This document shows positions 4,808 to 5,950 of a stretch of DNA of 11,964 bases, piece after piece. Origin of the DNA: a virus; the UHGV virus genome UHGV-1565976; one strand, given 5' to 3'. Under the pieces are notes generated by a model that saw nothing but the letters and a program-made list of their open reading frames with translations, had not been told where the DNA came from and ran no database searches. Made by a program: the position numbers and the translations under genes. Each line of letters starts with the position of its first letter. Position 1 is the stretch's first letter.

Positions 4808-5351
4808 TCATCACTGGAAAGTGGAAAAACAGCCTGAGTGGTACGTGAAAGCTGTCAGAAAAACTATCGCGGCGTTGCCGGGGGGTTACGCTGAAGCTGC
4901 TGAGTGGCTGGATGTAACAGAGAACGCATTATTCAACCGCCTTCGTGCAGATGGCGATCAGATTTTCCCGCTGGGATGGGCAATGATTTTACAACGTGCT
5001 GGTGGAACTCACTTCATTGCTGACGCTGTGGCGCAGTCTGCAAATGGCGTCTTTGTGTCTCTTCCTGACGTCGAGGATGTGGACAACGCCGATATTAACC
5101 AGCGTCTGCTGGAAGTCATCGAACAGATCGGGAGTTACTCAAAGCAGATTCGTTCGGCAATCGAAGATGGGGTAGTGGAGCCACACGAGCAGACAGCAAT
5201 TAATGATGAGTTGTATCTGTCAATTTCGAAGCTCCAGGAGCATGCAGCACTGGTCTACAAAATCTTTTGCGCTCCAGAAAAGAGTGACGCCCGCGAGTGT
5301 GCAGCTCCGGGCGTCGTGGCGTTTTGTGTCTGTGGAGAAACTAACGCATGA
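4800..5351 (+). CDS. CII-like regulator candidate (183 aa)
   Basis: GTG start with GGAGG 6 nt upstream, overlapping the cro-like stop; sits at the cII position; segment AEAAEWLDVTENALFNRLR looks HTH-like. Function is inference. Confidence 0.45.
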   Translation: MGNHHWKVEKQPEWYVKAVRKTIAALPGGYAEAAEWLDVTENALFNRLRADGDQIFPLGWAMILQRAGGTHFIADAVAQSANGVFVSLPDVEDVDNADINQRLLEVIEQIGSYSKQIRSAIEDGVVEPHEQTAINDELYLSISKLQEHAALVYKIFCAPEKSDARECAAPGVVAFCVCGETNA

Positions 5352-5496
5352 ATAGTTTAACGGCAAATAACCGTTTGTCGCAACAGCTGGTGGTCAGCGT
5401 CGCTGAACACCTGTTGTTACGGCATGAATGCAGATTACCAAATCACCTGGCTGTAAGTAACCACAGAGAACTTTACCTGACTGTGGGGGGCGAGTT

Positions 5497-5676
5497 GTGC
5501 AGGAACTTAACCGCTGGTTTCGTGACGGAAGAGGACTTTATGTTCATGTTATTCGTTGGGAGCCAGAAACACAGCGCGTTATCTATCTTCGCAAAGACTA
5601 CCCGCATGAGTGCTTTAGTCCTTTGTGGAAATTCAGGCGTGATTTTGTTGAGTGTGAAGGACCACCAGCATATTGA
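5497..5676 (+). CDS. small DUF4222-like protein (59 aa, GTG start), absent from the ORF track
   Basis: Frame open 5461..5676 after a TAA at 5458..5460; GTG at 5497 preceded by a GGGGGG run 6 nt upstream; translation VQELNRWFRDGRGLYVHVIRWEPETQRVIYLRKDYPHECFSPLWKFRRDFVECEGPPAY is protein-like and matches the remembered DUF4222 pattern. Confidence 0.45.
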   Translation: MQELNRWFRDGRGLYVHVIRWEPETQRVIYLRKDYPHECFSPLWKFRRDFVECEGPPAY

Positions 5677-5764
5677 TTCTGCAATTCCGGGACGTTACAC
5701 TGCTCAGGCACCTTATAAAGCGGGTGCCGGGGGTCGCAGCCCGGAATTGTCAACGGCGATATAT

Positions 5765-5784
5765 GACGCGCCAGCGTCTTTTTT
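5765..5784 (+). terminator. candidate intrinsic terminator (tR1-like position)
   Basis: GACGC-gcca-GCGTC hairpin followed by TTTTTT; about 90 nt after the DUF4222-like stop and before the Rha gene. Confidence 0.4.
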
Positions 5785-5950
5785 ATCGTCCGCGCTCACG
5801 CACGCCAGAATTATGGTGGGCTGGGCAGGGGAGCCGAAAGGCTCGCCGGTCTCCGTTGACGCCGGTACTGCGAACCCTGTTCAGTCTGCCACCAGTGAGT
5901 TTCGCAGCTCCGGTGGTGGAAGTTTTCCACAGTCAACGGAGGCTGCCATC

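Follow-up and report, generated by a model that had tools for sequence, protein, structure and literature searches.

The window analyzed here, an 11,964-nucleotide stretch of the UHGV virus genome UHGV-1565976, contains between positions 4800 and 6496 a series of genes and RNA elements that are all located on the plus strand. The first of them, ymfL (4800 to 5351), encodes a cII-like regulator matching the Pfam family Phage_CP76 and is annotated as ymfL in a 99.7%-identical genome. As described in an initial annotation of this DNA, the ymfL stop codon overlaps the ATG at position 5348 in the form of an ATGA, and from this ATG frame 2 continues without a stop to the stop codon of rha, yielding an open reading frame (ORF) of 382 amino acids (5348 to 6496). 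Across positions 5348 to 5950, the three frames contain 0, 11, and 10 stops, respectively. A frame that is stop-free over this distance was obtained in only 2 of 5000 dinucleotide shuffles, so that the open frame exceeds what is expected by chance. The Ala/Gly/Ser/Pro-rich character attributed to most of the translation is evident for positions 5677 to 5950, where these residues reach a fraction of 0.53, but not for the first 330 nt, where fractions of 0.20 to 0.23 indicate no enrichment.

The first part of the long frame (5348 to 5676) displays the features of a YmfM-family ORF: its start is coupled to the stop of ymfL, its N-terminal region is conserved, and it harbors a DUF4222 gene in a different frame. 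Its YmfM-specific part comprises the N-terminal ~50 codons, which share 39% identity with a YmfM N terminus (BLASTP; E value, 3e-11) and show a synonymous fraction of 0.56, compared to 0.24 and 0.18 in the other frames. The remainder overlaps the DUF4222 gene (5497 to 5676; frame 1, GTG start, TGA stop), whose 59-residue product matches Pfam PF13973 with 51.1 bits (cutoff, 27). In two tests, the synonymous fraction of the DUF4222 gene was 0.47 and 0.65 in its own frame and at most 0.23 in the others, and PGAP annotates it in relatives as a separate 59-aa gene. Thus, instead of meeting at the G run, as had been proposed, the two frames overlap by 180 nt, with the DUF4222 gene residing inside the frame-2 ORF, and over this distance the YmfM tail is open, yet unconstrained. 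NCBIfam holds no model that would name either YmfM or DUF4222, and Pfam has no family for the YmfM part.

The same arrangement is found in prophage e14, where the gene for YmfM (the cell division inhibitor SfiC) is likewise ATGA-coupled to ymfL, encodes a homologous N terminus, and has a nested DUF4222 gene. In E. coli K-12 and 36 other species, the YmfM frame ends approximately 20 nt upstream of the DUF4222 stop and no RNA module is present, whereas the type studied here is devoid of this stop, as is a Citrobacter braakii locus (L232). Accordingly, the +1 frame of DUF4222 contains a single stop, positioned at +157 to +166, in 36 of the 37 species, as opposed to a total of 185 stops in the +2 frame. 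As a side observation, the DUF4222 gene overlapped by ymfM (sfiC) of K-12 is unannotated.

The run of six G residues at positions 5485 to 5490 is present as initially described. It is located 6 nt before the GTG at 5497 and, judged by its position and its counterparts elsewhere, is the Shine-Dalgarno sequence of the DUF4222 gene rather than a slippery or phase-variable site. The equivalent site reads AAGGAG in K-12, followed after 7 nt by a TTG start; in two further diverged relatives (L040 and L041), GGGGGA precedes a GTG and CAGGTAAC precedes an ATG.

The DUF4222 gene is followed by two RNA genes and the leader of rha. A putative promoter (5673 to 5701) consists of a −35 element TTGATT (5673 to 5678), a 17-nt spacer, and a −10 element TACACT (5696 to 5701), with the expected +1 at about 5708. 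It ends 6 nt before 5708, agrees with the consensus at 8 of 12 positions, and is kept together with the module in differing upstream contexts; a promoter scan of positions 5300 to 6050 called none. Positions 5708 to 5784 match the Rfam family isrK (RF01394) with 58.7 bits (gathering score, 50) and correspond to an IsrK-type leader sRNA with two hairpins and an intrinsic terminator (5765 to 5784). The terminator scan placed the stem at 5765 to 5778, followed by a T run, in accordance with both the fold and the terminator-like hairpin recognized in the initial annotation. Two short elements of IsrK are relevant for what follows, namely, a1 (5733 to 5739; GUCGCAG), situated in the loop of hairpin 2, and b1 (5749 to 5756; GUCAACGG).

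A poorly conserved spacer (5785 to 5808) separates the two RNAs. The second one, a C4-type antisense RNA (5809 to 5896), matches positions 1 to 87, i.e., the full length, of the Rfam model RF01695 with 78.8 bits (gathering score, 45). Its minimum free energy is −47.8 kcal/mol (z score, −4.3), and the fold reproduces the family structure, in which a closing stem, here of 17 bp, encloses two hairpins. Hairpin 1 (5831 to 5844) is the GAGCC-gaaa-GGCTC element that had been noticed near position 5833; hairpin 2 (5845 to 5866) carries the b′ loop (5850 to 5861) and is followed by the a′ element (5868 to 5874). Across the 27 pairs, 99.9% of the cells were paired, compared to 33 to 48% in slid controls, and 10 pairs had changed on both sides; helix 3 was preset by the search pattern and is hence uninformative in this test. 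An AUG at position 5813, at the 5′ end of C4, is the counterpart of the orf45 start of Gifsy-1.

The rha leader contains a C4 operator (5901 to 5942) with the sites a2 (5901 to 5907; UUCGCAG) and b2 (5932 to 5941; GUCAACGGAG), the latter overlapping the Shine-Dalgarno sequence GGAGG (5938 to 5942), which is located 8 nt before the ATG at 5951. This Shine-Dalgarno sequence, the ATG, and the N-terminal residues MATIP are conserved, and ATG 5951 is the true start of the protein annotated as a 382-aa Rha. The rha gene proper (5951 to 6496) encodes a 181-aa Rha-family regulator, presumably an antirepressor, with the Phage_pRha domain at residues 21 to 106. An S24-type repressor, a candidate target of Rha, is encoded on the minus strand at positions 3757 to 4449. 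Related modules precede genes of antirepressor families, namely, those for Ant, Bro-N/P22_AR, ORF6N, and Derepression-family proteins.

The elements of the C4 RNA are complementary to those of the rha leader and of IsrK. Calculated as loop-level duplexes, on which alone the pairing energies rest, b′-b2 reaches −18.8 kcal/mol and a′-a2 reaches −10.5 kcal/mol; whole-molecule duplexes of C4 with the leader or with IsrK were uninformative (z scores of about −1.9), as this calculation disregards folding within each RNA and both partners are GC rich. Among 63 unique modules, complementarity was on average larger within a module than toward foreign ones, with 8.4 versus 4.0 nt for b2, 6.9 versus 4.2 nt for b1, 6.9 versus 3.8 nt for a2, and 6.8 versus 4.3 nt for a1. 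The sites in C4, IsrK, and the rha leader thus covary three ways across 45 b′ alleles and 20 a′ alleles.

The initial annotation had also considered GC-rich noncoding DNA, which comes close, and an unrecognized extended Rha. Positions 5677 to 5950 are indeed GC rich and lack protein-level constraint, but they represent two structured RNAs instead of junk. As all 86 distinct relatives keep this frame free of stops, an extended Rha may exist as a translation event, but the extension is not conserved as a protein: in the RNA region, the synonymous fraction in the frame of the long ORF is 0.28, compared to 0.26 and 0.22 in the other two frames, and hence shows no excess. A gene in frame 2 with both an open frame and a conserved amino acid sequence, which would have pointed to one real long gene, was therefore only half recovered, the open frame being kept and the protein not. 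It may be added that a purely noncoding reading fails to predict the absence of stops in all 86 relatives.

Taken as a whole, the initial interpretation was supported only in part. The stretch from 5348 to 5950 is a composite in which two small genes that overlap each other precede the genes of two known regulatory RNAs, IsrK and C4, and the long frame results from the absence of the usual YmfM stop together with the lack of any in-frame stop in the RNA module. The components are very likely known elements of the early-right operon of an e14/mEp460-like lambdoid prophage.

With a probability of about 85%, positions 5673 to 5950 constitute an antisense-RNA immunity module of the P1 immI, P4 CI, and Gifsy-1 IsrK type that controls Rha production, an assignment based on sequence and structure comparison. 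According to this model, a YmfM-family ORF coupled to ymfL, overlapping DUF4222 with its G6 Shine-Dalgarno sequence, is followed at the end of DUF4222 by a self-contained RNA module comprising its own putative promoter, the IsrK-type sRNA, the C4-type RNA, and the rha leader. Transcripts of IsrK would stop at the intrinsic terminator, and C4 would arise from read-through and, presumably, processing, mature C4-type RNAs being approximately 77 nt long. C4 would then pair through its b′ loop and a′ strand with b2 and a2 and mask the Shine-Dalgarno sequence of rha, so that synthesis of the presumed antirepressor Rha would be blocked in the lysogen. Being copies of the target sites, a1 and b1 of IsrK could sequester C4 or open the long transcript, which would switch rha on. 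The joint occurrence of isrK and C4 in P4, N15, mEp460, and the Stx phage PA2 supports the assignment as a module.

One of the closest known systems is the immI region of P1 and P7 (c4-icd-ant). It features a C4-family RNA of the same kind with a′ and b′, sites a2 and b2 that cover the ribosome-binding site of the first gene downstream, upstream duplicates a1 and b1, specificity determined by the a and b sequences, and control of an antirepressor. Mechanistic details of the P1/P7 c4 system were reportedly worked out by Citron and Schuster in 1990 and by Biere et al. in 1992. In contrast to P1 and P7, the leader carrying a1 and b1 is here a terminated IsrK-type sRNA, no separate icd ORF exists and b2 covers the Shine-Dalgarno sequence of rha itself, and the module is placed within a lambdoid early operon and a stop-free frame. 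The MANRK group turned out to belong to P2-like phages and not to P1, so that P1 enters this comparison through its published description. The role of P1 C4 in controlling Ant has been summarized previously (PMC8201110).

The isrK-orf45(STnc1160)-anrP locus of the Salmonella prophage Gifsy-1 was characterized experimentally by Hershko-Shalev et al. (2016; PMC4825925), who found that IsrK switches on anrP, that it is complementary to the C4-like region, and that orf45 is conserved in its nucleotide but not in its amino acid sequence. The order of elements is the same as here, with an IsrK sRNA and terminator first, then a C4-like region in which orf45 starts at the 5′ AUGG, and finally an antirepressor gene, which, however, encodes an ORF6N instead of a Rha protein. 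The Gifsy-like locus L008 contains a 45-codon ORF ending in AUGA. A coupling of this kind, in which a short ORF from the 5′ AUG of C4 has a stop that overlaps the antirepressor AUG, does not occur in the locus studied here, where AUG 5813 and ATG 5951 share one frame without an intervening stop, so that the orf45 equivalent is fused to rha, and where, unlike in Gifsy-1, the frame extends upstream into ymfM.

In satellite phage P4 (seqA-CI RNA-seqC), the Rfam families isrK, c4-a1b1, and C4 are all found in the leader, and the ORF formerly termed cI/ash ("cI gene product") matches Phage_ASH across the C4 RNA, as does the 382-codon ORF. CI of P4 acts mainly by premature transcription termination upstream of the replication genes, and the P4 open frame, unlike the one described here, does not run through the isrK-like part. 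The anti-immunity locus of N15 and the ant loci of Stx phages of the PA2/phi24B type contain isrK and C4 matches that exceed the Rfam gathering scores and precede antirepressor operons, PA2 also sharing the N terminus MATIP and the Shine-Dalgarno context with rha. The modules of N15 and PA2 differ in being stand-alone, and none of the three frames is free of stops across their RNA region.

It has to be explained why the frame remains open in the present type. Frame 0 is free of stops in all 86 distinct modules of the E. coli group, whereas the other two frames have 19 distinct stop columns each; the probability that all 38 columns spare frame 0 is (2/3)^38 = 2e-7, although these counts come from related sequences and not from independent events. 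Avoidance of stops holds in each half of the module separately, and indels occur in multiples of three. The combination of a stop-free frame with an absence of amino acid-level selection suggests that the transit of ribosomes matters and not the protein. It is conceivable, albeit tentative, that selection keeps the frame open so that ribosomes arriving from ymfL-ymfM, or loaded at the orf45-like AUG 5813, can translate through the IsrK terminator and C4 into rha; rha and the operon behind it would in this way be tied to translation upstream, and the terminator as well as the antisense block would be circumvented. In favor of this, modules with a different upstream context have an open frame whose ATG is ATGA-coupled and preceded by a strong Shine-Dalgarno sequence, the YmfM tail bears the same open-but-unconstrained signature where it overlaps DUF4222, the stand-alone module of PA2 contains in-frame stops, and orf45 of Gifsy-1 is translated and coupled to anrP. 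On the other hand, PA2 represents one outgroup lineage, an open frame is missing altogether from about one-third of the modules of other lineages, and a YmfM-Rha fusion product has no known role. Possibly, then, the DNA of the two RNAs doubles as a stop-free transit frame through which translation during lytic growth might override both terminator and C4 block. Rha could in that event be made as an N-terminally extended fusion, with predicted isoforms of 227 and 382 aa and with selection perhaps acting on openness while the peptide sequence would be irrelevant. Passage of ribosomes in this manner would be compatible with the antisense-RNA immunity module favored above.

Very unlikely, by comparison, is that the 382-codon ORF encodes a single genuine protein in which a functional Ash domain precedes the Rha domain. 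This is how current annotation presents it: PGAP lists WP_001530587.1 as a "Rha family phage regulatory protein," mEp460 has a 384-aa "regulatory protein Rha," and Pfam Phage_ASH (PF10554) matches residues 117 to 212 with 64.6 bits, in line with the frame being stop-free in relatives. However, positions 5708 to 5950 show neither a synonymous excess nor codon periodicity, and in the overlap region the selected frame is that of DUF4222 and not that of the long ORF. The Ash match coincides with isrK and C4, just as the Phage_ASH-matching ORF of P4 overlies the C4-family CI RNA, and a protein domain was rejected for this stretch, which matches the HMM but does not evolve like a protein. The Pfam Phage_ASH model appears to have been built on translated C4/IsrK genes. 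In addition, the Shine-Dalgarno sequence and ATG at 5951 are conserved, the same module has distinct proteins (77, 120, and 181 aa) fused to its downstream end, and the PA2 relative has stops in frame, so that the long ORF as a conserved protein is largely refuted.

A role of the G6 run in programmed frameshifting or phase variation, or as the mark of a frameshifted pseudogene, by which the ORF from 5348 would be joined to DUF4222, is hardly credible: G GGG GGC formally matches the pattern X XXY YYZ, a single added G does bring the two frames into phase, and the G7 of one relative (L201) would fuse them, but the variation in tract length for which an alignment of homologs had been suggested amounts to this G7 and one GGGTGG among 123 loci, the other 121 having G6, diverged relatives carry the alternative motifs given above, each followed by a start codon, and the YmfM and DUF4222 ORFs are kept separate across 37 species, the latter standing alone in PGAP. 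A −1 frameshift, phase variation, a pseudogene, and an assembly artifact were all rejected on these grounds and because the same arrangement is shared by phage mEp460 and hundreds of E. coli genomes, with both DUF4222 and the YmfM N terminus being intact and under purifying selection. The region is carried by about 890 E. coli genomes.

Automated annotation renders the RNA switch as a protein, listed either as "Rha" of 382 aa or as "ash family protein." As a consequence of the PGAP and Phage_ASH calls, the N-terminal extension is misannotated in hundreds of E. coli genomes, which also miss two regulatory RNAs. The overlap with DUF4222 in K-12 bears on the reading of published ymfM overexpression phenotypes. 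Should ribosome transit prove true, a single DNA segment would compactly combine the functions of an sRNA gene, an antisense RNA gene, and a translated conduit, and the antisense immunity switch would be overlaid by a bypass that depends on translation. The module puts an antirepressor switch of the P1 type, with its specificity encoded in the sequence, into common e14/mEp460-like prophages; with 45 b′ alleles, 20 a′ alleles, and arrays in tandem, it is relevant to heteroimmunity and to the cross-induction of coresident prophages.

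The observation of a long open frame running from an ATG at 5348 into rha is real, yet it is accounted for by known families. Judged from the sequence, the stretch 5348-5950 appears to consist of two overlapping small genes followed by an IsrK/C4 antisense module predicted to control rha. The window contains a plus-strand ORF of 382 codons (5348..6496), the start of which overlaps the stop codon of the preceding gene as ATGA. The frame of this ORF is free of stops over 5348-5950, as described in the initial annotation; the other two forward frames have 11 and 10 stops, and only 2 of 5,000 dinucleotide-preserving shuffles gave a stop-free outcome. 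The positions of a G6 run (5485-5490), a terminator-like hairpin (stem 5765-5778, then a T run), and a GAGCC-gaaa-GGCTC hairpin (5831-5844) were likewise confirmed, while the Ala/Gly/Ser/Pro-rich translation assigned to most of the stretch was found for 5677-5950 only (fraction 0.53; 0.20 to 0.23 upstream). In the nearest genome, which is 99.7% identical, the homologous ORF lies in a lambdoid early region with the order S24/XRE repressor (minus strand), Cro-like HTH gene, ymfL, 382-aa "Rha family phage regulatory protein," and replication-region genes; this order recurs in phage mEp460, where the "regulatory protein Rha" has 384 aa. Similar DNA is present in 1,387 of 5,426 complete E. coli genomes and in 258 phage records. 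For relatives, PGAP instead predicts a DUF4222 protein of 59 aa together with either an "ash family protein" or a longer Rha, and the starts of the latter two calls fall within the stretch. Behind rha lies a 74-codon ORF (6493-6717), coupled by ATGA to the stop of rha and without a match in Pfam or NCBIfam; in tandem arrays, this "MIR" start and the same Shine-Dalgarno sequence open the frame of the module that follows.

The region 5677-5950 harbors two RNA genes identified with Rfam, isrK (5708-5784; 58.7 bits, gathering score 50) and a C4 antisense RNA (5809-5896; 78.8 bits, gathering score 45). Of the two hairpins noted above, the terminator-like one is the terminator of IsrK and the GAAA one is C4 hairpin 1. 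The fold of the C4 RNA in the window is that of the family (-47.8 kcal/mol, z of -4.3), and across 31 distinct relatives 99.9% of the cells were paired, versus 33 to 48% in slid controls, with 10 pairs changed on both sides. That the long ORF might be one conserved gene is supported by the absence of stops in its frame in relatives but not by its codons: over the RNA region no codon periodicity was found (entropy 0.63/0.69/0.62 versus 0.98/0.90/1.26 in the gene behind), and there was no synonymous excess in the long-ORF frame (0.28 versus 0.26 and 0.22). The Pfam Phage_ASH match (residues 117 to 212 of the long ORF) coincides with isrK and C4. Because of these null results and this coincidence, "Ash" is taken to be a translation of RNA genes and ATG 5951 to be the rha start; Phage_pRha starts at residue 21 of the resulting 181-aa product. 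The same Pfam model matches the old P4 "cI gene product" ORF over the C4-family RNA of P4, the immunity of which is RNA based. Phage_ASH (PF10554) lies on translated isrK plus C4 at 5696-5983 in the window, at 8168-8584 (minus strand) in P4, and at 1840-2385 in locus L002, and PGAP "ash family protein" calls begin within the RNA module; Phage_ASH has the appearance of translated noncoding RNA.

Upstream of the RNA genes, the N terminus of the frame-2 ORF is, by sequence comparison, a diverged YmfM (39% identity, E value of 3e-11). At the homologous position, K-12 e14 carries the annotated "cell division inhibitor YmfM" (ymfM, SfiC; 4323-4661 of that locus), overlapping an unannotated 59-aa DUF4222 ORF in another frame (4502-4681). 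The published pBAD-ymfM clone would include most of this DUF4222 ORF. A set of 37 distinct DUF4222 loci, each from a different species of Enterobacterales, was compared. The +1 frame of DUF4222 contains exactly one stop, at +157..166, in 36 of these loci, and the +2 frame contains 185 stops in total; the overlap is kept in 36 of 37 species. The ATG of the +1 ORF overlaps the ymfL stop as ATGA, and the first ~55 residues are conserved, with a synonymous fraction of 0.56 versus 0.24 and 0.18 in the other frames. Within the overlap the values are 0.65 for the DUF4222 frame and 0.19 for the YmfM frame; the selected frame is DUF4222, and that of YmfM is merely kept open. Since the usual YmfM stop is missing in the window type and in Citrobacter braakii (L232), and since the RNA module follows directly where DUF4222 ends, the YmfM frame stays open into the module.

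In the window, the DUF4222 gene (5497-5676; Pfam, 51.1 bits versus 27) shows a synonymous fraction of 0.47 among relatives, versus 0.20 in the long-ORF frame. Its GTG start lies 6 nt after the G6 run. K-12 has AAGGAG-7-TTG at the equivalent place, and other diverged relatives have GGGGGA before GTG or CAGGTAAC before ATG; because of this spacing and the recurrence of motif plus start, G6 is assigned as the DUF4222 Shine-Dalgarno sequence. The tract length is essentially constant, with G6 in 121 of 123 viral-contig loci of this context, one G7, and one GGGTGG, and these loci gave no indication that the tract is phase variable or conserved as a slippery site. The G7 (L201, 162-189) would fuse the YmfM N terminus to DUF4222; it could reflect either a sequencing error or a rare variant. 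With the DUF4222 frame selected, similar DNA widespread in E. coli, and the tract constant, the proposals of a pseudogene, an artefact, or a slippage-prone frameshift site can be dismissed.

The C4 RNA carries two recognition elements with counterparts in the rha leader and in IsrK. The b′ loop (UCUCCGUUGACG, 5850-5861) is complementary to b2 (GUCAACGGAG, 5932-5941), which overlaps the Shine-Dalgarno sequence GGAGG 8 nt before ATG 5951, and the a′ strand (CUGCGAA, 5868-5874) is complementary to a2 (UUCGCAG, 5901-5907). Copies of the targets are found in IsrK, a1 in a hairpin loop (GUCGCAG, 5733-5739) and b1 (GUCAACGG) at 5749-5756. In an alignment of the window with two E. coli relatives, all three site sets change together. 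A search of viral contigs with a degenerate C4 pattern yielded 63 unique modules with 45 b′ and 20 a′ alleles. Average complementarity within the own module versus foreign modules was 8.4 versus 4.0 nt for b′-b2, 6.9 versus 4.2 nt for b′-b1, 6.9 versus 3.8 nt for a′-a2, and 6.8 versus 4.3 nt for a′-a1. As the unequal allele numbers illustrate, a and b sites assort independently in these modules (L002-L124), TACGCC being common to 22 of the 63, a pattern suggestive of specificity determinants being exchanged as modules. Some contigs (L078, L041, L042, L210, and L220) carry two or three complete isrK-C4-gene modules in tandem (three copies with a 656-nt period in L078), with a/b sequences differing from copy to copy and a 120- to 187-aa Rha-like gene in each.

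The module shares its a1b1/c4/a2b2 logic with the immI operon of P1/P7, for which RBS masking and Rho-dependent polarity were reportedly detailed by Citron and Schuster (1990) and Biere et al. (1992). The isrK-C4 pair is also present in P4, N15, mEp460, and Stx phage PA2, and the genes downstream of related modules belong to the antirepressor-type families Rha, ANT, Bro-N/P22_AR, ORF6N, and "Derepression." In P1, C4 controls Ant (PMC8201110). PA2 carries a stand-alone module of this type outside the ymfL operon (L276, 1500-1745), with a compensatory change in C4 helix 3 (GCUGG/CCAGU versus GCCGG/CCGGU). In N15 (L277, 1584-1890), the gene 32 CDS, a "transcriptional repressor," begins within the C4 RNA, and the annotated "rho-independent terminator" is that of IsrK. 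The closest experimental system is isrK-orf45-anrP of Gifsy-1, in which IsrK supplied in trans pairs with the orf45/STnc1160 region and activates the translation of anrP (PMC4825925). The AUGG at the C4 5′ end (window position 5813) is the counterpart of the orf45 AUG, and a Gifsy-like locus in the module set has an ORF of exactly 45 codons ending in AUGA.

The open frame itself is conserved. Of the 86 distinct modules of the E. coli group, which shares the MAT(I/V)P.. N terminus, none has a stop codon in frame with the downstream ATG, versus 191 and 339 stops in the +1 and +2 frames. The latter fall into 19 distinct columns per frame, 9 upstream of the C4 AUG and 10 between it and the gene ATG; the chance of all 38 columns avoiding frame 0 is (2/3)^38 = 2e-7. 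Indels in the module are multiples of three, and where the upstream context differs, the open frame is entered ~55 nt before the isrK start, through an ATG that is ATGA-coupled and has a strong Shine-Dalgarno sequence. The modules of other lineages show an even distribution of stops among frames, and in the stand-alone PA2 module every frame has stops despite the same N terminus and Shine-Dalgarno context. In locus L086 (module at reverse-complement position ~4058), the module lies in a frame open for 2,271 nt upstream, so that a large ORF enters the RNA genes from that side. The MANRK ("Derepression" family) group, with the P2-like phages L038 and L096, has the C4 5′ AUG in another frame than the gene with the Shine-Dalgarno ATG; the AUG frame is nevertheless free of stops throughout the module and the entire small gene (+231 to +310 after the gene ATG), and in L038 it closes where it overlaps the following gene as ATGA. 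The YmfM tail is likewise open yet without amino acid constraint. This combination fits Gifsy-1 orf45, which is translated, variable in amino acid sequence, and required in its translation for anrP (PMC4825925). A possible reading, though we consider it less likely than not, is that selection favors the transit of ribosomes arriving from ymfL-ymfM or starting at AUG 5813, perhaps so that translation and transcription get past the IsrK terminator and the C4 block.

The analysis thus exposes an annotation error and a conserved stop-free frame, and it adds a previously uncharacterized example of an IsrK/C4-rha module. It also bears on the filamentation caused by the K-12 pBAD-ymfM clone, for which the causal product could be either YmfM or DUF4222.
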